From positions 431,977-463,976 of the forward strand of contig CAWFMC010000018.1 of the NCBI GenBank assembly GCA_963816725.1: DNA of 32,000 nucleotides. Direction: 5' to 3'. Numbering within the stretch: the first letter of the stretch is position 1; each line of letters starts with the position of its first letter. This document shows, piece after piece, positions 10,421 to 18,083 of this stretch. The notes under the pieces are model-generated. The model saw only the letters and a program-made list of their open reading frames with translations, made no database searches and was not told the origin of the DNA. The stretch comes from an uncultured Acidobacteriota bacterium. GTDB taxonomy: Bacteria; Acidobacteriota; Vicinamibacteria; Vicinamibacterales; 2-12-FULL-66-21. The position numbers and the translations under genes were made by a program.

Positions 10421-10678
10421 TTACGAGTCCTTCTTGCGGATGGACGACAGCGGGACGAAAGTCATCGAGGGAGTCGACGCGGCCACCGGTTCGGGCGCCG
10501 CCGCGGGGGCGTCACCGGGATCGAGACGGGCGACCTGCGATCGCAGGCGGGTATAGTCGTAGCGCAGCTCCCAGTACGACTGGTTCAGCGTTTCGAGCCG
10601 GCGCGCCTGACGCCGGACCAGCAGCAGCGCTATTGCCGCGAGAGCCAGCGCCAGGGCGGTCACGCTCCACAACACCAC
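10421..10678 (-). CDS. small single-pass membrane protein, unknown function
   Basis: GTG start. N-terminal TM helix LWSVTALALALAAIALLLV followed by a charged helix. Ends 4 nt before the lpdA start and carries the lpdA SD (AAGGA) in its 3' end. Confidence 0.5.
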   Translation of the reverse strand: MVLWSVTALALALAAIALLLVRRQARRLETLNQSYWELRYDYTRLRSQVARLDPGDAPAAAPEPVAASTPSMTFVPLSSIRKKDS

Positions 10679-10764: not shown

Positions 10765-12150
10765 ATGTCCGGACTCTCGAAGACGGTCCTGATCTGCGAC
10801 GACGATCAGGGCATGCGCGACACGATCGCGGCGATCCTGCAGCGCGAGTACCGCGTGCTCTCGGTGCCGAGCGGCGAGTCCGCGTTGGCCGTGCTCAAGC
10901 AGGAGGACGTCGACGTCCTGCTGCTCGATGTCCGCCTCCCGGGCATCAACGGGCTCGACGTCCTGCGCATCGTGCGGGAGAACTACGGCTTCGTCGAGTG
11001 CATCGTGATCTCGGCGATCAGCGAGGTCGAGACCGCCGTCCAGGCGATGAAGTACGGCGCCTACCACTACGTCACCAAGACGTTTGAGTACGACGAGCTG
11101 CGATCGCTCGTGCGCAACGCCTGCGAGCACCAGGATCTCAACCGCCAGGTGGCGATGCTGAGCGCCCAGGTGGCCGAGGGAGAGCGCGAGTTCCTGATCG
11201 GTCCGAGCCGGCAGATCCGGGAGATCGTGGACCTGGTGCACAAGGTCGCGAAGCTGTCGGCCACGGTGCTGATTCTGGGCGAGAGCGGTACCGGCAAAGA
11301 GTTGCTGGCGCGACTGCTCCATCGCGAGTCCGGCCGGCGCGACGCGCCGTTCATCGCCGTCAACCTGTCCGCGATCCCGCACGAGCTGGTAGAGAGCACG
11401 CTGTTCGGCCACGAGCGCGGCTCGTTCACCGGTGCGCACAAGCAGCAACTCGGGAAGTTCGAGCTCGCATCGGGCGGCACGCTCTTCCTCGACGAGATCG
11501 GGGACCTCCGCCTGGACCTCCAGGCCAAGCTGTTGCGGGCCATTCAGGAAGGGGAAATCGAGCGGATCGGCGGCACCAAGCCGATTCGGACGAACTTCCG
11601 GCTGGTGGTGGCCACCAACGTCGACGTCGAGAAGGCGGCCAAAGAGGGACGCTTCCGCGAGGATCTCTACTATCGGATCAACGTCATTCCCATTCGGATG
11701 CCGCCGCTCCGCGAACGCCTCGACGACCTGCCGGAACTGGCCCGGCTGTTTCTCGAGCGCTACCGGGTCAAGTTCCGGAAGCCGGTGCTCGGGATCGCGG
11801 ATTCGGCGGTAAAAATCTTGGCCTCGTACTGGTGGCCGGGCAACATCCGGGAGCTCGAGAACCTGATCGAGCGACTGGTCGCGGTCAGCGACAAGGAGTG
11901 GATCACCGACGAGGACCTCCCGATGGAGTATCACCTCGCCAAGCTGGATTCGGGCCCGGCGGCCGGCGAGACGCTGTTCCAGGAGGCCTGCGACACCTTC
12001 GAGCGCAACTTCATTCTCCGCGCGCTCGAGAAGTCCGACTGGAACGTGACCGCGACCGCCCGCTATCTCGGGATTCCGCTCAGCACGCTGAAGCACAAGA
12101 TGGCTCGTCTCGAGCTGCGCGATCTCGCGCGCAGGCTGCGCGGCGTCTGA
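10765..12150 (+). CDS. sigma-54-dependent response regulator (NtrC/Fis family bacterial enhancer-binding protein)
   Basis: Receiver (VLICDDDQGMRD, LLLDVRLPG), AAA+ sigma-54 interaction domain (Walker A GESGTGKE, GSFTGA loop, LFLDEIG), C-terminal HTH (TATARYLGIPLSTLKHKM). ATG 10765; the upstream 536 aa of the 997-aa ORF is antisense to lpdA and rejected. Confidence 0.95.
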   Translation: MSGLSKTVLICDDDQGMRDTIAAILQREYRVLSVPSGESALAVLKQEDVDVLLLDVRLPGINGLDVLRIVRENYGFVECIVISAISEVETAVQAMKYGAYHYVTKTFEYDELRSLVRNACEHQDLNRQVAMLSAQVAEGEREFLIGPSRQIREIVDLVHKVAKLSATVLILGESGTGKELLARLLHRESGRRDAPFIAVNLSAIPHELVESTLFGHERGSFTGAHKQQLGKFELASGGTLFLDEIGDLRLDLQAKLLRAIQEGEIERIGGTKPIRTNFRLVVATNVDVEKAAKEGRFREDLYYRINVIPIRMPPLRERLDDLPELARLFLERYRVKFRKPVLGIADSAVKILASYWWPGNIRELENLIERLVAVSDKEWITDEDLPMEYHLAKLDSGPAAGETLFQEACDTFERNFILRALEKSDWNVTATARYLGIPLSTLKHKMARLELRDLARRLRGV

Positions 12151-12212
12151 CGCCAACCAGCCCGCCATCCGTCCCATTACGGCTCGTCTTCCAGGCTTCC
12201 GGTTGGCGGGGG

Positions 12213-12282
12213 CGGCCAATCACTCGGCCAATCAGCGAACCGGGCGGCTAACCTATTGGCCGGATCGGTGGGCCGATCGGCC
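12213..12282 (+). promoter_or_regulatory. candidate enhancer (UAS) repeats
   Basis: CGGCCAATCA at 12213-12222 and 12225-12234 (direct). Inverted copy TATTGGCCGG at 12254-12263. Perfect 12-bp palindrome GGCCGATCGGCC at 12271-12282. Lies about 135-205 bp upstream of the putative -12 element. Confidence 0.35.
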
Positions 12283-12404
12283 CTCTTGCGCTCGCGTACG
12301 GCCGACGGGCCCGCAGAGCTCTATCCAAAGAGTTCACTGGAATCGGCCACTTATCGCTTATCTCCCGCCGTCGATATGACTCTTTGGTCAGTCCGTAAGA
12401 CCGT

Positions 12405-12420
12405 CGGAATATCGGTTGCA
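12405..12420 (+). promoter_or_regulatory. candidate sigma-54 (-24/-12) promoter
   Basis: cGGaatatcggTTGCA has correct GG-N10-GC spacing (GG 12406-12407, GC 12418-12419) and a perfect -12 TTGCA, but a weak -24 (CGGAAT vs TGGCAC). It lies 76 nt upstream of the rSAM ATG and just downstream of a sigma-54 activator gene. Confidence 0.35.
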
Positions 12421-12495
12421 CTTCGCCGGGCGGTGGGCGGCGCGCTGGTTCGTCCGATGAGCGCTCCGTCGATCGCCAGGCCACGGAGGAGTCCC

Positions 12496-13914
12496 ATGCA
12501 GCCCTCGATGTTCAACGTGAGTGTCCCGCTCGATGGTCGCGACGACGTGTTCCTGATGAACACGTTTTCGGACGCGCAGCTGATTGTGTCGCGTGACGTG
12601 GCCGACGTGCTCGATCGCATCGCCCGCGGTGAACGGCAGTTCGCCGCCGACGAGCGTGACGCCATCGACACCCTCGTCGAGCAGGGGTTCATCGTCGAGA
12701 GTCGGGCCGCGGATCATCAGGCGCTGGAGGAGTTCTTCCACAACGTTCGGGAGGATCGCAGCCAGCTGCGGGTCACGGTCCTGACCACCCTGCAGTGCAA
12801 CTTCGCCTGCGATTACTGCATCCAGGGCGATCACGGCGATTACAACAAGCACGCCGCCAAGATGTCGCTGGACACCGCCGCGCGCACCGCCGAGTGGGCC
12901 GAGCAGCGGCTGGACGCGGTGGCCCCGTCGAGCTTCGCGCTGACGTTCTTCGGCGGCGAGCCGCTCCTCAACCTGCCGGTTCTGTTCTACCTGTCCGAGC
13001 GCCTCGCCGAGAGCTGCCGTGTGCGCGGTGTGCGGATGATGATCAACATCATCACCAACGGGCTGCTGCTGACGCCGGCGATCGTCGATCGGCTGACGCC
13101 CCTGGGCCTGAACGGCGTCAAGGTCACGCTCGACGGCGACCGCGACACGCACAACAGGATGCGGCCGCTGCGCGGGGGCCAAGGCACCTTCGACCGAATC
13201 CTCGACAACGTGCGGCAGGTCGCCGGCAAGACGCGGATCTCGATCGGCGGCAACTTCGACGAGCAGAGCGTCGACAGCTACCCGGCGCTCCTCGACTTCC
13301 TGCGCGAGCAGGAGTTCGCCGGTCAGCTGGCCAAGGTCGCGTTCAAGCCGATCATCAAGCCGGCGCAGTCCGCCCATCCGAAAGGCACGTTCGCACTGAC
13401 CGCGGTCGGCTCGGACGGGAAGCCGCTCGGCGGCGCGTGCATGACGTCGGCCGGGACCGGCGTCTCGAGTGCCTGCGACAACTGCCACTTCCTCGACGAG
13501 AAGATGTCGTATTTGCGCGAGGAAACGATGCGGCGCGGCTTTCCGACGATGGACGGCGTGCACATGGGGCCGTGCGAGATCCACAAGCATCACGCGCACA
13601 CCGTCGGGCCGGACGGTTCGCTCTACGCCTGCCCGGGGTTCGCCGGCGAAGCCACGCAGTCGACCGGCCACATCGACGGCCGCGACGAACAGTGGCGGCG
13701 CGAGTCGGCCAGGCGCTTCGAGGTGATCACGGCGTGGTCCGAGTGCAACGACTGCGCGTTCATTCCGGTCTGCGCCGGCGGCTGCAGTGTCGCGGCGCAC
13801 GCCGAGCTGGGCGACCTGCAGAAGCCCAATTGCCACAAAACGAGTTTCGAGGCTGGCGTGGTGACGCTGGCGAGACAGGCAGCAGCGCGAGCGGAGCCCG
13901 CGCTGGCCGGGTAA
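12496..13914 (+). CDS. radical SAM/SPASM domain peptide-modifying enzyme (RiPP maturase-like)
   Basis: GGAGGA SD 5 nt before ATG 12496. About 95-aa N-terminal extension before the core (RRE/PqqD-like position). CNFACDYC (CxxxCxxC) at aa 101-108. GGEPLL. SPASM motifs GSLYAC (GX4C) and CNDCAFIPVCAGGC (CX2CX5CX3C) plus the trailing Cys in PNCHK. Extra Cys triad CMTSAGTGVSSACDNC. Confidence 0.9.
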   Translation: MQPSMFNVSVPLDGRDDVFLMNTFSDAQLIVSRDVADVLDRIARGERQFAADERDAIDTLVEQGFIVESRAADHQALEEFFHNVREDRSQLRVTVLTTLQCNFACDYCIQGDHGDYNKHAAKMSLDTAARTAEWAEQRLDAVAPSSFALTFFGGEPLLNLPVLFYLSERLAESCRVRGVRMMINIITNGLLLTPAIVDRLTPLGLNGVKVTLDGDRDTHNRMRPLRGGQGTFDRILDNVRQVAGKTRISIGGNFDEQSVDSYPALLDFLREQEFAGQLAKVAFKPIIKPAQSAHPKGTFALTAVGSDGKPLGGACMTSAGTGVSSACDNCHFLDEKMSYLREETMRRGFPTMDGVHMGPCEIHKHHAHTVGPDGSLYACPGFAGEATQSTGHIDGRDEQWRRESARRFEVITAWSECNDCAFIPVCAGGCSVAAHAELGDLQKPNCHKTSFEAGVVTLARQAAARAEPALAG

Positions 13915-13946
13915 GGGGAATGGCTTCGCTAGTTTGGGAGGGTCCG

Positions 13947-14027
13947 GTGGAAGTAGAACGCAACGAGAGCGGCAAGAAAAAGGGGGCGCTGCGCCCCTGG
14001 CTGGTCGACGTCGTCATCGACGAATAG
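13947..14027 (+). CDS. putative divergent precursor-like peptide (26 aa from GTG 13947; 35 aa if ATG 13920)
   Basis: GGGAGGG SD 4 nt before GTG. (M)EVERNESGKKKGALRPWLVDVVIDE aligns with the two 31-aa peptides (M1, G9, K11, K12 and PW.VD identical, with a 3-residue gap where the others have HVC). Confidence 0.45.
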   Translation: MEVERNESGKKKGALRPWLVDVVIDE

Positions 14028-14081
14028 CTGCGCTGAGGGCAGCTCGGGTCACGCTTCACTCACGTCAGTCAGGAGAGAGTC

Positions 14082-14177
14082 ATGAAAATCCAGGTCGTTC
14101 AAAAGGGTACGAAGAAGATCATGTCGAATCACGTGTGCCCTTGGTACGTCGACGAGCCGCCGGCCGCCAAGAAGTAG
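14082..14177 (+). CDS. radical-SAM-associated precursor peptide, copy 1 (31 aa)
   Basis: AGGAG SD 6 nt upstream. MKIQVVQKGTKKIMSNHVCPWYVDEPPAAKK. Not in the ORF track (too short). Paralogue 141 nt downstream. Confidence 0.8.
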   Translation: MKIQVVQKGTKKIMSNHVCPWYVDEPPAAKK

Positions 14178-14222
14178 GCGCCGCCCGCGATCGACGAATT
14201 CACCATTTTCTGAAGAGGCATC

Positions 14223-14318
14223 ATGAAGATCCACGTCGTTCAGAAGGGCACCAAGAAGATCATGTCCAACCACGTGTGCCCTTGGTACGTCGACGAGCCG
14301 CCGGCCGCCAAGAAGTAG
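14223..14318 (+). CDS. radical-SAM-associated precursor peptide, copy 2 (31 aa)
   Basis: AAGAGG SD. MKIHVVQKGTKKIMSNHVCPWYVDEPPAAKK. It has 7 nt differences from copy 1, all at third codon positions: 6 synonymous and 1 Q4H. Flanks are not conserved. Confidence 0.8.
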   Translation: MKIHVVQKGTKKIMSNHVCPWYVDEPPAAKK

Positions 14319-14327
14319 CTGCACGTG

Positions 14328-14357
14328 GCCCGTTGCCGGGAATCCACGGCAACGGGC
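14328..14357 (+). terminator. perfect 11-bp GC-rich hairpin 10 nt after the last peptide gene (terminator/attenuator or mRNA stabiliser)
   Basis: GCCCGTTGCCG-ggaatcca-CGGCAACGGGC. No U-tract follows. Confidence 0.45.
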
Positions 14358-14497
14358 GCAGCACCATCCGCGGTCGTCGACAGGGGTACAGCTCGCCATC
14401 GGTTCTGCCGATACCCCGCTGAGACGCTGGCACCGACGATCAGAGGGCATGGCTTGCCCTCGGCGACTGTGGCAGAGTAGCGCCATAGCGGCGAGAC

Positions 14498-16039
14498 ATG
14501 CTGGTGCGCTCCACACAACGTTCGTCCCTCCTTCCGACCCGGCGCGAGCTGGGCATTTTCGCCTGCCTGCTATGTGCGGTCGTCGCCCTGGCCTGCCGAA
14601 ACAGCGGTCCTGTGAGCGCGGTCAAGGACAGCCTGACGATCGGCATCTCAATACCCAAGGTCGGTGGGGACGAAAACAACATCGACAAAGTGAGCGGGTC
14701 GATGACGTTGGAAACGGCGGTAGCCAACGCACTCGACGGCAAGCCGGCAAAGCGCATATTCGACAGTTGGAAATGGATCGAACACGGCCACGCCCTCGAG
14801 CTGCACCTGCAGCCTCGTGTTTTCTTTCACGACGGTACTCCTCTCAACGCTGAGCTCGCCGCTGACATCCTCAGGGACAGTCTCACCCACCCGGAGCTAA
14901 CGCAGATTTCCGAAGTCGATTCGGTCGCCGCGACCGACGACGAGCATGTCGTGATCAGGACCAAGCGACAGGAGGGACTGCTACTGTCGGACCTGTCGAT
15001 GATCGAATTCGAGCGCCCAGGCAAGCCCGGTGTGGGCACGGGTCCCTTCAAGGCGACAGCCGACCCGGCGACCGTGGAAGCCTTCGATCGGTACTACCTG
15101 GGCGCGCCGACACTCAAGCGGGTCAGGCTCGTCGAATACGATTCTCAGCGGGCCGCCTGGTCGGCCATGATGCGCGGCGAGATTGACATGCTGCATCAAG
15201 TCAGTCGAGACGCCGAGGAGTTCGTCGAAGCCGAGTCGAGTGTCAAGGCCACCAAGTTCCTCAGGCCCTACTACAACGGCATCGTGTTCAACACTCGTCA
15301 TGCCGACCTCTCCAAGCGGGAGGTCCGAGTCGCGCTGAACGAGGCGATCGATCGTGCCGCGATTGTGCGCCTCAGCCTGGGCGGACAGGGGCGGCCGGCC
15401 AGCGGACCCGTATGGCCTCTGCATTGGGCGTATTCGACGTCGGTGTCGGAGTTCGGTTACGACCCGGCTCGCGCTGCGGAGCGGCTGGATGCTCTCGGCT
15501 ACACCGTCGGTCGGGTCAAAGAACCGGGGCGGATGCCGAGCCGGTTTCATTTCAAGTGCCTGCTGGTCGAGAACGATCCGGGTGCCGAGCGAATCGCCCT
15601 GCGCGTGCAGCGACAGCTTTACGAGCTGGGCGTCGACATGGAGGTCGTGCCGGTAAAGAGTCTGAGGAAGGCCTTCAGCACCGGCGACTTCGATGCGGCG
15701 CTGCTGGAATTCATCGGCTCGCGTGCGCTGAACTGGCTCTATATACTCTGGCACTCGCCGCAGCCAGGAGCACGGAGTCAGCTCCCAACCGGGTACGACG
15801 CCGCCGACTCGGCACTCGACCGATTCCGGTCAGCAACCGACGAGACCGATATCCGGGCGTCAGTGGAAGAAATGCAGCGAGTGTTCCGCGACGATCCTCC
15901 GGCTCTGTTCCTGGCCTGGCAGGAACGCTCGCGAGCCCTGAGCAGGGCGTTCGAAGCACCGGACGAGGGCAACGTCGACATCCTCGGAACGATCCGCCAG
16001 TGGCGCGGCGTGCCGATGCCAAAGCAGGGCCGCAAATGA
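14498..16039 (+). CDS. family-5 (peptide/nickel/opine type) substrate-binding protein, no cognate transporter genes nearby
   Basis: SBP_bac_5-like motifs FFHDGTPLNA, GTGPFK, FGYDPARAAERLDALGY. N-terminal signal sequence with a possible lipobox (VVALAC). No permease or ATPase genes adjacent. Confidence 0.85.
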   Translation: MLVRSTQRSSLLPTRRELGIFACLLCAVVALACRNSGPVSAVKDSLTIGISIPKVGGDENNIDKVSGSMTLETAVANALDGKPAKRIFDSWKWIEHGHALELHLQPRVFFHDGTPLNAELAADILRDSLTHPELTQISEVDSVAATDDEHVVIRTKRQEGLLLSDLSMIEFERPGKPGVGTGPFKATADPATVEAFDRYYLGAPTLKRVRLVEYDSQRAAWSAMMRGEIDMLHQVSRDAEEFVEAESSVKATKFLRPYYNGIVFNTRHADLSKREVRVALNEAIDRAAIVRLSLGGQGRPASGPVWPLHWAYSTSVSEFGYDPARAAERLDALGYTVGRVKEPGRMPSRFHFKCLLVENDPGAERIALRVQRQLYELGVDMEVVPVKSLRKAFSTGDFDAALLEFIGSRALNWLYILWHSPQPGARSQLPTGYDAADSALDRFRSATDETDIRASVEEMQRVFRDDPPALFLAWQERSRALSRAFEAPDEGNVDILGTIRQWRGVPMPKQGRK

Positions 16040-17751
16040 GGGGCGTCACCGCCAGGTTCGTGATGCTCATTGCGACGGCAGCCGTCGCGCCGCTGGTCGT
16101 GTATGGCGTCGTCTCGATTCTCCGCCTCGAATCGGGCACCAAACAGTCGGTGACCGAAGGCAACACGCGGGTCGCCAAACAAGCCGCCGAGCAGATCAAG
16201 CAGTACATCGAGAACAACCAGCGCGTCCTCAAGTCCCTCGGCGTCGAGCTCCGCGCTCCGGAGCTGCAGGACTGGCAGCGGTCCGGGATCCTGCGCGACT
16301 ATGTGCTCGATTTTCCGGAGTTCCGCGAGATTGCCTTACTCGACGACAGCGGTGCCGTGGTGGTCACCAGCCGGTTTGGACAATCCAGGGCCACGGTCCC
16401 CCCGGCCGAGAATGTCACGGGCGACCTCTACGTTTCGGCGCTGCGCCTCGATGACGACTTCCTGCCGACCGCCACTATCGGTGTCAGGACCAACAGCCCG
16501 CAGAGCGGCCGGACGTGGATCGTCGGCGAGATCGCGCTCGAAGAGCTGTGGCGCATGGTCGACCGCATTCGCGTCGGGCAATACGGATACGCGCTGCTGT
16601 TGTCCGAGAAGGGCGTGCTGGTCGCGCATGGCAATCCGGACAAGAAGCGGCAGATCGCGGTGGCCGCAAAGACGGCCTCTGGCGACACGCTGGCAGGTCA
16701 GCGGTACGTCAAGAACAACCCCGGATTGCTTTACGTCGATGAGCCCGTCGACGGCCTGAACTGGCGAGTCGGTGTGGAGCAGCCGGAATCCGAAGCCTTC
16801 CGGCTGAATGGCGAGCTGCGCACCCAACTCCTCTACGTCATCGGCGCGGCGCTCCTCGGCACGTTGGTGGTCGGTTACCTCTGGGCCCGCACCTTCATCA
16901 CCCGCATCTTCGCGCTCAAGCGCGCCACCCTGGCCATCGGCGAAGGGCGCTTCGACGAGCGGGTCGCGCTCACCGGAGACGACGAGCTGAAGCAGCTCGG
17001 CGACTCCTTCAACTCGATGGCCGACAGCATCGTCCAGCTGCAGGAGGACGTGCGTAAGCAGGAACGGCAGGCGATGTTCGGCCGGATCGCCGCCGGCCTG
17101 GTCCACGACCTGTCACACCCGATCCAGAACATCGGGAACAGCTGCAAGCTGATTCAGAAGATGTACGACGACCTCGAGTACCGCGCCACCTTCAAGCGCA
17201 CCGTCGAGCGCGAGATGGTCGTCGTCAAACGGGTGCTCGACGACCTGCGCAACATCGCCCGGCCGATTCCGCTCGAACGGTTCCCAATCGAAGTCGATCG
17301 GACGCTGGGCGAAGTCGTCGAATCGATGCAGCAGCATGCCGAAACCGCCGGCCTGACGCTGCGCGGCGAGTTCGCCGCCACCGGCGCCTTCATCGAGGGC
17401 GACCTTTTTGCATTGGGGCGGGTGTACCGGAATCTGATCGTCAACGCGATTCAGGCCACCGCGCCGGGCGGGCTGGTCGCGGTCGCGACCGAGCTGGCCG
17501 GGGCCCGCGTGCACGTCCGTATTTACGACACCGGTTGCGGGATTCCGCCCGACCGTCTGGGCAGGATTTTCGAAGATTTCGTGACCACGAAGCGGCGCGG
17601 CCTGGGGCTGGGGCTGGCGATTTCCAAGAAGATCGTCGAGCAGCTCGGCGGGACGATTTCGGTTGCCAGCGAGGTTGGCAAGGGCACAACCTTCGTCCTG
17701 GAGTTTCCAAGGACGAAAGGCGGCAACGTGGCCCTCGATCAGGCCGGCTGA
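16036..17751 (+). CDS. sensor histidine kinase (TM, periplasmic Cache-like domain, TM, HAMP, HisKA, HATPase)
   Basis: ATG 16036 overlaps the SBP stop (ATGA). TM helices at about aa 8-28 and 264-288. HAMP region (LKRATLAIGEGRFDERV...ELKQLGDSFNSMA), H-box GLVHDLSHPIQN, NLIVNAIQAT, DTGCGIPP, GLGLGLAISKKIV. Confidence 0.9.
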   Translation: MRGVTARFVMLIATAAVAPLVVYGVVSILRLESGTKQSVTEGNTRVAKQAAEQIKQYIENNQRVLKSLGVELRAPELQDWQRSGILRDYVLDFPEFREIALLDDSGAVVVTSRFGQSRATVPPAENVTGDLYVSALRLDDDFLPTATIGVRTNSPQSGRTWIVGEIALEELWRMVDRIRVGQYGYALLLSEKGVLVAHGNPDKKRQIAVAAKTASGDTLAGQRYVKNNPGLLYVDEPVDGLNWRVGVEQPESEAFRLNGELRTQLLYVIGAALLGTLVVGYLWARTFITRIFALKRATLAIGEGRFDERVALTGDDELKQLGDSFNSMADSIVQLQEDVRKQERQAMFGRIAAGLVHDLSHPIQNIGNSCKLIQKMYDDLEYRATFKRTVEREMVVVKRVLDDLRNIARPIPLERFPIEVDRTLGEVVESMQQHAETAGLTLRGEFAATGAFIEGDLFALGRVYRNLIVNAIQATAPGGLVAVATELAGARVHVRIYDTGCGIPPDRLGRIFEDFVTTKRRGLGLGLAISKKIVEQLGGTISVASEVGKGTTFVLEFPRTKGGNVALDQAG

Positions 17752-17834: not shown

Positions 17835-18083
17835 ATGTTTCGAACGCTCGTGAAGACCGGCGAGATCGAGGCGGACGGACGCACGTACGTCGCCTACTAC
17901 TTCGAGCTGCGCACGGCGCGTGGCGCGCGCCGCTACAGCTGCGAGATCCTCCTCAAGGCGCCGGACCGGATCATCGTCGACGACGACTCCCTGACCAGCC
18001 TCGAGCTGCTGGTCGCCCGCACCGTGCCGGCCACCCTGGCCAGCCGCCGCCTCGCCGCCCGCCCCGCTGTCGTCGCCGCCTGA
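17835..18083 (+). CDS. hypothetical protein (82 aa)
   Basis: GGAGGA SD 4 nt before ATG 17835. MFRTLVKTGEIEADGRTYVAYYFELRT...; no family recognised. Confidence 0.45.
   Translation: MFRTLVKTGEIEADGRTYVAYYFELRTARGARRYSCEILLKAPDRIIVDDDSLTSLELLVARTVPATLASRRLAARPAVVAA

Follow-up and report, generated by a model that had tools for sequence, protein, structure and literature searches.

Two families of very short putative precursor peptides beside a radical SAM/SPASM enzyme in the Vicinamibacterales

The window analyzed here is a 32,000-nucleotide (nt) stretch of DNA, with a G+C content of 66.9%, from an uncultured bacterium of the order Vicinamibacterales (Acidobacteriota; GenBank assembly GCA_963816725.1, contig CAWFMC010000018.1, positions 431,977 to 463,976 of the forward strand). 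Directly downstream of a gene for a radical S-adenosylmethionine (rSAM) enzyme with a SPASM domain, it contains three tandem micro open reading frames (micro-ORFs), which encode peptides of 26, 31, and 31 residues. The patterns of sequence variation indicate that all three are real coding genes under strong purifying selection. We suggest that they are probably the members of two families of precursor peptides for the upstream enzyme, making up a system for a peptide made on the ribosome and then modified post-translationally (RiPP). A preliminary description of the window, made from the sequence alone, had already linked the micro-ORFs with the neighboring rSAM gene. This link is strengthened by their strict co-location in the gap between the rSAM gene and a gene for a family-5 solute-binding protein (SBP), and by the sigma-54 promoter that they share with the rSAM gene.

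A relative of the rSAM enzyme is encoded in 312 genomes, as found by scanning one genome per species with the rSAM alignment. The best 80 of these 312, which are all metagenome-assembled genomes, form the locus set, with the window as the 81st locus. All of the best 80 are assigned to the Acidobacteriota and the Vicinamibacterales, except for three bins, one labeled Acidimicrobiia and two labeled Bifidobacteriaceae. The counts of peptide presence are based on the 68 complete loci. The preliminary description had proposed a search for homologous micro-ORFs beside related rSAM genes, and we found them adjoining the orthologous rSAM gene in essentially all of the 80 related genomes. The gap between the rSAM and SBP genes in which they lie is 300–1100 nt long in almost every locus.

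Coding status of the micro-ORFs

The second and third micro-ORFs, which we call type B copies 1 and 2, are located on the plus strand at 14082..14177 and 14223..14318 and encode the 31-residue peptides MKIQVVQKGTKKIMSNHVCPWYVDEPPAAKK and MKIHVVQKGTKKIMSNHVCPWYVDEPPAAKK, which can be written together as MKI(Q/H)VVQKGTKKIMSNHVCPWYVDEPPAAKK. As the preliminary description had stated, the two coding sequences differ at seven nucleotides, all of them at third codon positions, with six synonymous changes and one exchange of Q and H. If the differences were placed uniformly, the chance of finding 7/7 at third positions would be 4.6e-4. Counting by the method of Nei and Gojobori gives six synonymous differences over 18 synonymous sites and one non-synonymous difference over 75 non-synonymous sites. 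The flanking sequences had been called unrelated, and comparison of the 40 nt upstream of each ATG gives 11/40 matches, and that of the 40 nt downstream of each stop 10/40, the level expected by chance. The reported Shine-Dalgarno sequences were also found, with the Shine-Dalgarno-like CAGGAGAGA ahead of copy 1 and GAAGAGGC ahead of copy 2. Note that, going from copy 1 to copy 2, all seven changes are from A, T, or G to G or C, and copy 2 has the G+C-richer codon in every case. Over their last 49 nt the two ORFs do not differ, and gene conversion could lie behind these identical ends.

The same pattern is seen in the other loci. There are 24 same-length pairs of type B genes within single genomes, from 22 loci, and their 228 differences are split 24/23/181 over codon positions 1, 2, and 3. 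The ORFs of paralogue pairs are 90% identical, compared with 32–34% identity in the 40-nt flanks, and the pooled dN/dS of the pairs is 0.055. One locus (L041) has three copies, whose peptides are identical despite 5–11 synonymous differences. The mean entropies at codon positions 1, 2, and 3, from 63 unique orthologue sequences per family, are 0.98, 0.86, and 1.26 for type B and 0.73, 0.66, and 1.22 for type A, the family of the first micro-ORF. The codons of invariant residues (Pro in type B; Pro, Leu, and Val in type A) show no entropy at the first two positions but 1.2–1.8 bits at position 3. Furthermore, a Shine-Dalgarno core is located 4–18 nt before 92/99 of the type B starts, compared with 9.4% of control positions.

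Could the conservation arise instead from cis-regulation, with the micro-ORFs acting as leader ORFs that attenuate expression of the downstream SBP and kinase genes, or as a repeated structured RNA? The ORFs do lie upstream of these genes, and a strong hairpin follows the last copy. This stem-loop, at 14318..14362 (+), has a predicted energy of −34.3 kcal/mol (z = −4.2) and is a possible terminator or mRNA stabilizer. Across the loci, hairpins after the last type B gene are only weakly enriched (mean −25.5 versus −22.4, p = 3e-4) and are strong in the closest relatives only, so we leave the stem-loop out of the conserved module. Against a regulatory RNA, a Rfam scan of 12100–14600 gave no match, and the spacers between type B copies cannot be aligned. 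The Cys, the aromatic residue, the Asp or Glu, and the MKIxVxKK N-terminus are kept at the level of the amino acids, while synonymous sites vary freely. The variation at third positions in both orthologues and paralogues, together with the lack of an Rfam family, bears out the earlier claim that selection acts on the peptide and not on an RNA, and we consider the cis-regulatory explanation to be highly improbable.

The first micro-ORF, type A, runs from GTG to TAG at 13947..14027 (+) and encodes the 26-residue peptide VEVERNESGKKKGALRPWLVDVVIDE. An alternative in-frame ATG at 13920 would give a peptide of 35 residues. The GTG, which was the start chosen in the preliminary description, is preceded by GGGAGGG at 13936–13942. 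In 29/58 type A orthologues, a start codon (25 ATG, 4 GTG) precedes R-P-W by exactly 15 codons, as the GTG of the window does; because of this match with the orthologue starts, the GTG at 13947 is better supported than the ATG at 13920. Close strains differ radically in the residues encoded from one of these starts to the other (LV to QP) but keep the GGGAGGG.

Three longer ORFs, at 12795–14027 (+), 13934–14422 (+), and 14049–14516 (−), overlap the rSAM gene and the micro-ORFs, as is typical of high-G+C DNA. We reject these shadow ORFs as genes because the spacers that they cross cannot be aligned between the copies, and a Pfam scan of 13934–14422 (+) and 14049–14516 (−) gave no match. Among L001–L007, on European Nucleotide Archive contigs of the series ERZ250395xx, several near-identical metagenome contigs have fragmented gene calls and in-frame stops in the locus; for example, L007 has a stop within copy 2, and copy 2 of L006 is frameshifted. 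These stops and frameshifts have the look of errors of long-read assembly, not of true pseudogenes.

Two related peptide families

Type B peptides have the N-terminus MKI[QT]V[IV]KK, about 10 variable residues, and the core C-x-[WFY]-x-x-[DE], after which P-P and a tail rich in Lys usually come. Their lengths are mostly 30–33 residues, with an overall range of 29–34. The preliminary description had taken P-W-x-V-D as the core of the family of copies 1 and 2, but this cannot be maintained, as the universal core is C-x-[WFY]-x-x-[DE], which is present in 80/80 unique type B peptides. This core begins with CPW in 46 of the peptides, with CAW and CPF in 10 each, with CAF and CPY in 5 each, and with other variants in 4. 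Type B genes are present between the rSAM/SPASM and SBP genes in about 66/68 complete loci, in one to four tandem copies, so that the copy number does vary between related genomes, as the preliminary description had proposed to check. Four loci were flagged by our script as having no type B gene; two of them (L060 and L067) in fact have two copies each, one (L042) has a frameshifted copy, and one (L057) has none.

Type A occurs as one gene, immediately downstream of the rSAM gene, in 52/68 complete loci. The consensus of the type A peptides is MKxxKKxxxKKxGTLRPWLVDVVVDxLR, in which P, W, L, and D are invariant, and there is no Cys. No type A gene was found in the 19 loci with only type B that were checked. 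B-like ORFs occur only in the gap between the rSAM and SBP genes, and neither type A nor type B was found elsewhere in the window or in the loci.

What is the relationship between the two types? Profile–profile alignment with hhalign gives an alignment of the cores only, CPWxVDxPP with RPWLVDVvV, with a probability of 87% and E = 4e-6, and the Arg of type A is placed directly opposite the Cys of type B. The third ORF of the preliminary description, our type A, had been presented there as a divergent paralogue of the other two. The relationship is real at the core, but type A is a separate, Cys-free family and not a mere divergent copy. Because it is conserved across the loci and its profile aligns with that of type B over the core only, we take type A to be a distinct conserved relative of type B rather than a decaying copy. 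Likewise, the deletion of H-V-C that had been ascribed to it corresponds to a true length difference of three residues, but this is only one placement of the gap, and the profile alignment sets Arg against Cys.

The peptides had been described as unannotated. The sole name that they carry in public data is indeed "hypothetical protein", but gene callers have already predicted them in many metagenomes. The exact peptide of copy 1 is indexed in 80 blocks of a metagenome collection, on syntenic contigs; samples containing exactly this locus include those under the European Nucleotide Archive accessions ERZ27251485, ERZ27252051, and ERZ25039464. A search of 1.84 billion representative proteins with the type B profile found 52 clusters (at 50% identity) with E ≤ 1e-3, and these are 30–37-residue peptides of the type B design, except for P0130 and a few gene calls with N- or C-terminal extensions. 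P0130 is an 891-residue tandem-repeat protein that matched the profile; on inspection, it is unrelated and looks like a low-complexity or clustering artifact. P0183 and P0191, which are the size of Mcm helicases and are listed in the 90% cluster of the peptide, also look like clustering or low-complexity artifacts. A homology search with the concatenated copies 1 and 2 found six gene calls, all over-extended at the N-terminus and all named "hypothetical". Pfam and NCBIfam contain no family that matches the three window peptides (NCBIfam at E ≤ 1), and 48 diverse type B peptides had no match in NCBIfam even at E ≤ 10. A literature search found no description of the peptides or of the module.

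The radical SAM enzyme and the predicted modification

The rSAM gene is located at 12496..13914 (+), with an ATG start, and encodes a protein of 472 residues with an N-terminal domain that may be like the RiPP recognition element (RRE). It has Pfam matches to Radical_SAM (E = 1.1e-15) and Fer4_12, and it scores 47.2 bits with the NCBIfam SPASM domain model TIGR04085, for which the cut-off is 27. Among 25 orthologues, the CxxxCxxC motif (C101, C105, and C108) is invariant, as are the cysteines of the SPASM motif CX2CX5CX3C (C417, C420, C426, and C430) and C360, C379, and C446. There are thousands of homologues, of which the best 120 are 69–100% identical, and one of these is named "radical SAM protein [Acidobacteria bacterium]".

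The curated NCBIfam families nearest to the enzyme are without exception maturases of peptides, and most of them act on peptides that contain Cys. Among the full-length families, the geopeptide maturase TIGR04280 scores best, with 253.5 bits (E = 3.8e-75, residues 89–374) against a cut-off of 400. Lower scores are given by CefB (183 bits; cut-off 600), TIGR04463 (171; 525), Clo7bot (141; 600), PapB NF047865 (119.9; 340), QhpD (112; 453), and the SCIFF maturase ScfB TIGR03974 (93.4; 425), and CcpM is also among these families. The models of the cyclophane enzymes YhhB and FxsB score 70.5 bits (cut-off 445) and 56.7 bits (cut-off 370). Comparison by sequence and by fold gives the RiPP maturases CteB, TigE, SuiB, and SkfB as the closest solved structures. 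In Foldseek, the whole AlphaFold2 (AF2) model, with a mean predicted local distance difference test (pLDDT) score of 58, aligns with CteB. The whole model is poor, and within it residues 1–85 (pLDDT about 63–88) form three strands followed by three helices, which is the layout of an RRE. Judged by these sequence and fold comparisons, the enzyme has the features and the relatives of RiPP maturases.

We propose that the putative RRE-like domain of the enzyme binds the MKIxVxKK N-terminus of the type B peptides and that the enzyme installs a cross-link in their C-x-aromatic-x-x-[Asp/Glu] core. The divergence of the N-terminal half of type B tracks that of the rSAM enzyme when the divergence of the regulator is controlled for (partial r = 0.57, p = 0.001). 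The likeliest product would be a thioether between the Cys sulfur and a side-chain carbon of the acidic residue, in the manner of a ranthipeptide with a Cys-X4-Asp/Glu motif. This modification leads the candidates because the Cys and the acidic residue at +5 are both invariant, and because the nearest enzyme families form thioethers. Type B therefore probably carries a Cys-to-Asp/Glu thioether.

In the ranthipeptides, rSAM/SPASM enzymes of the PapB, CteB, and QhpD types join the sulfur of a Cys to Asp, Glu, or Thr at a carbon other than the alpha carbon. The present system resembles them in the rSAM and SPASM layout with a possibly RRE-like N-terminus, in having CteB as the nearest solved structure, in the presence of the PapB, QhpD, and SCIFF families among the matches of the enzyme, and in the short precursor genes adjoining the maturase. 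Furthermore, the invariant Cys of type B, with Asp or Glu five residues on, is within the range of PapB, which forms thioethers from Cys to Asp or Glu and can act on Cys-Xn-Asp with n = 0–6 (PMC9413430). It differs in that the scores with the PapB, ScfB, and QhpD models are far under their cut-offs, and in that each type B peptide contains just one C-X4-[DE] motif and one Cys, whereas SCIFF and freyrasin have six Cys and repeated motifs. It differs also in its 29–34-residue precursors, its second, Cys-free family, its diderm acidobacterial host, and its sigma-54 three-component control.

Geopeptide maturases are rSAM/SPASM enzymes paired with short peptides in Proteobacteria-like anaerobes. 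Although their family, TIGR04280, gives the best score of any curated family for the window enzyme, that score does not reach the cut-off, and no NCBIfam peptide model matches the three window peptides or the 48 diverse type B peptides, which were compared through such models only.

Several points weigh against our interpretation. There is no named maturase family whose curated cut-off the enzyme reaches, and its RRE-like domain (residues 1–95) has no Pfam match and is seen in the poor AF2 model described above. No protease, exporter, or other tailoring gene was found in the locus with Pfam and the gene calls. Finally, type A lacks Cys, and therefore a thioether cannot be the modification common to types A and B.

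What, then, might the enzyme do with type A? This peptide, with Arg in place of Cys and P-W-x-V-D kept, could be a second substrate with a modification centered on Trp, or a competitor that cannot be cross-linked. The only candidate modification site common to the two types is the aromatic residue with the two residues after it, [WFY]-x-x in all type B and W-L-V in all type A peptides, and this fits an aromatic-to-C-beta cross-link, although the motif alone is not specific. One possibility is that the modification common to both types is centered on the aromatic residue, as in a three-residue cyclophane, but the models of cyclophane enzymes score poorly on the rSAM protein. The likeness to the triceptides (XyeB, GrrM, FxsB, and YhhB) consists of an aromatic residue and two more (W-Y-V in B and W-L-V in A). 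Among the differences, the YhhB and FxsB models are far under their cut-offs, and such chemistry would leave the invariant Cys and acidic residue of type B unexplained. The third residue is aliphatic here (Val, Ile, or Leu), whereas in triceptides it is usually Asn, Lys, Arg, or Asp. Another possibility is that type A is not cross-linked at all and is a competitor or has some other role.

The micro-ORFs might also be small proteins that are never modified, for example modulators of the SBP, the kinase, or the regulator, with the rSAM enzyme acting on a different substrate. A Cys-free type A with an extremely conserved C-terminus would suit a binding peptide. However, the architecture and the nearest relatives of the enzyme are those of peptide maturases, the peptides are always encoded directly downstream of it in what appears to be the same sigma-54 operon, and the N-terminal half of type B co-varies with it. 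We consider this explanation unlikely.

A further alternative is that the peptides are precursors of a small cofactor or metal-binding molecule, as in PqqA/PqqE or MftA/MftC, and not of a secreted peptide. This would be in keeping with very short precursors that have one invariant Cys-aromatic-acidic core, with a vertically inherited locus in a fixed position, unlike typical mobile biosynthetic clusters, and with the presence of QhpD among the full-length matches. But peptidase, oxidase, or carrier genes were not found in the locus, and the free variation around the core and in the tail, together with the one to four copies, is easier to reconcile with a peptide product than with a cofactor of two residues. 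This alternative appears to us quite unlikely, and we retain a precursor function in a RiPP system as the preferred explanation.

The system is of a generally known kind, a rSAM/SPASM maturase with adjacent short precursor genes, and not a new kind of system. We place it outside the named families because the enzyme falls short of the curated threshold in each of the named families tested and the peptides match no curated model. What is unusual is the pair of related precursor families, one of them Cys-free, the very short precursors, the fixed position throughout the order, and the dedicated sigma-54 three-component sensor.

Sigma-54 control, the sensor genes, and the conserved module

A sigma-54 (−24/−12) promoter-like element, CGGAAT-ATCGG-TTGCA, is located at 12405..12420 (+), 91 nt before the start of the rSAM gene. 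Such elements, defined by an in-register GG and GC and by agreement with the consensus at 8 or more of 11 positions, were found before the rSAM gene in 74/79 loci, compared with 7.7% of control windows. Equivalents of the form CGGAAY-N5-TTGCA are nearly always 70–160 nt upstream of the gene. A scan of 12100–14600 for sigma-70 promoters found none, and the terminator-like matches in this region are on the minus strand only, within or beside ORFs. The conservation of the sigma-54 promoter before the rSAM gene indicates that the rSAM, type A, and type B genes form one predicted sigma-54 operon, in which the promoter would drive the rSAM gene, type A, and both type B copies as a single transcript.

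The likely activator is encoded upstream on the same strand. The gene at 10765..12150 (+), with its start taken from 461-residue gene calls in L005 and L008–L010, encodes a sigma-54-dependent response regulator of 461 residues (Pfam Response_reg, Sigma54_activat, AAA_lid_14, and HTH_8), which combines a receiver, an AAA+ sigma-54 activator, and a Fis-type helix-turn-helix domain. A regulator gene is upstream of the rSAM gene, on the same strand, in 72/73 loci, and in the window a spacer of 345 nt separates the two genes. Within this spacer, at 12213..12262, are the repeats CGGCCAAT, at 12213–12220 and 12225–12232, and its inverted form ATTGGCCG, at 12255–12262, which are 140–190 nt upstream of the promoter. 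The CGGCCAAT 8-mer or its complement is present in 50/74 loci, 20–260 nt upstream of the promoter, and in none of the equal-sized control regions. Because of their position and repetition, these repeats are candidate sites for the adjacent enhancer-binding regulator, which would activate the promoter, probably through them. An inverted repeat, CCAAAGAGT ... GACTCTTTGG, is also present at 12325–12388, between the CGGCCAAT repeats and the promoter. Its 8-mer AAAGAGTC/GACTCTTT occurs in 31/74 loci and in no controls, and it could be a second site for the regulator or a site for a DNA-bending protein.

The genes downstream of the peptides encode a probable sensor. The first, at 14498..16039 (+), is for a family-5 SBP (Pfam SBP_bac_5) that is a predicted lipoprotein, as its N-terminus ends in a lipobox-like ...VALAC. 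The second, at 16036..17751 (+), is for a histidine kinase of 571 residues with dCache_1, HAMP, and HATPase_c domains (Pfam). The ATG of the kinase gene overlaps the stop of the SBP gene as ATGA, an arrangement that indicates translational coupling of the two. The closest solved relatives of the SBP are AgaA and AppA, and no ABC transporter partners of the SBP were found in the locus. Between the last type B gene and the SBP gene, 28/65 loci and no controls have an element GCCGATA(A/T), often with TTCGG about 17 nt upstream; the copy in the window is TGCCGATACC, at about 14407. The form of this element suggests a separate promoter, of sigma-70 type in appearance, for the SBP and kinase genes.

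We propose that the lipoprotein SBP and the coupled dCache kinase are the sensor that controls the regulator. A comparable circuit is AioX/AioS/AioR, in which a periplasmic SBP, a histidine kinase, and a sigma-54 regulator control a neighboring operon (PMC7565993, PMC6011840). At the level of sequence, the two share an orphan extracytoplasmic SBP, a membrane kinase, a sigma-54 activator, and a −24/−12 promoter on the target operon. Here, however, the SBP is a lipoprotein of family 5 (the peptide, opine, and nickel type), the kinase is of the dCache type, and the target is peptide maturation, so the likeness is one of working and not of family membership.

What does the sensor detect? One possibility is that it detects the exported product: modified type B, after release, would be bound by the SBP and, through the dCache kinase and the sigma-54 regulator, induce its own synthesis. 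The solved relatives of this family-5 SBP bind oligopeptides and opines (AppA and AgaA), and the SBP has a lipobox, no transporter partners, and a kinase to which it appears to be translationally coupled. The sigma-54 promoter is on the peptide operon itself, and the separate GCCGATA(A/T) element in many loci means that the sensor could be present before induction. With the rSAM enzyme and the regulator controlled for, the divergence of the type B core correlates best with that of the SBP (partial r = 0.34, p = 0.001, compared with 0.00–0.15 for the other module proteins, the kinase having 0.10–0.15), although differences in rate and common ancestry confound this Mantel result.

Other observations speak against such self-sensing. 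The SBP is the fastest-evolving protein of the module, with a mean p-distance of 0.61, compared with 0.31 for the rSAM enzyme and 0.18 for the regulator. The SBP of one locus (L011) is only about 45% identical with that of the window, compared with 81% for the rSAM enzyme, 91% for the regulator, and 72% for the kinase, yet the type B core is almost unchanged (CPWYVDEPPASKK versus CPWYVDEPPAAKK), and a similar SBP identity with a near-identical core is found in L012. HU, encoded nearby, is about 95–97% identical in these comparisons. Despite the positive partial correlation, SBP divergence thus proceeds largely independently of the peptide. Within the kinase, too, divergence is faster in the periplasmic part than in the cytoplasmic one (p-distances of 0.48 and 0.28). 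Moreover, the module encodes no exporter or leader protease, and the SBP or the dCache domain could equally bind an unrelated nutrient, opine, or metal complex. Self-sensing is thus a tentative proposal that we regard as rather doubtful. In the same tentative spirit, the locus might be a self-contained peptide-pheromone circuit in a diderm soil phylum, built on a peptide of 30 residues cross-linked by the rSAM enzyme, with the Cys-free type A as a built-in competitor or a second signal, although we would not expect this to be the case.

The conserved order of the module is the sigma-54 regulator, the repeats and promoter, the rSAM/SPASM enzyme, type A, type B in variable number, the lipoprotein SBP, and the dCache kinase. 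The SBP gene is downstream of the peptides in 68/81 loci, most of the others ending before it, and the kinase gene follows the SBP gene in 61/61. After the kinase gene is a gene for a protein of 82 residues, at 17835..18083 (+), which has the same position in 48 loci, with 60–77% identity (tblastn), and no Pfam match; it is possibly a further member of the module. Divergently upstream of the regulator gene is an ORF of 85 residues, at 10424–10678 (−), found in 64 loci, which encodes an N-terminal hydrophobic segment and has no significant Pfam match. Synteny extends more widely to 2-oxoacid dehydrogenase genes, to the genes of the 85-residue membrane protein and the 82-residue protein, and to that of HU, which is about 95% identical across the loci. 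Because the neighborhood is syntenic and HU is so well conserved, the locus is a vertically inherited module of the core genome and not a mobile cluster.

The Vicinamibacterales (Acidobacteria subgroup 6) belong to the most abundant bacteria of soils and also to the least cultured ones, and to our knowledge almost nothing is known of their peptide natural products and signaling. At least 312 species-level genomes, along with many metagenomes, contain this vertically inherited module of the core genome, which offers a tractable prediction, with one enzyme, two substrates of 26–31 residues, and one invariant motif. For enzymology, it would provide a new family of rSAM substrates, with a natural pair of Cys-containing and Cys-free peptides, and the defined sigma-54 promoter and set of sensor genes provide a way to ask what an abundant soil acidobacterium senses. 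These peptides also illustrate that high conservation of a gene with about 30 codons need not bring it any name beyond "hypothetical protein". If the pheromone circuit is true, it would be the first peptide-based cell–cell signaling described in Acidobacteria, and it would extend throughout an order of an abundant soil lineage.

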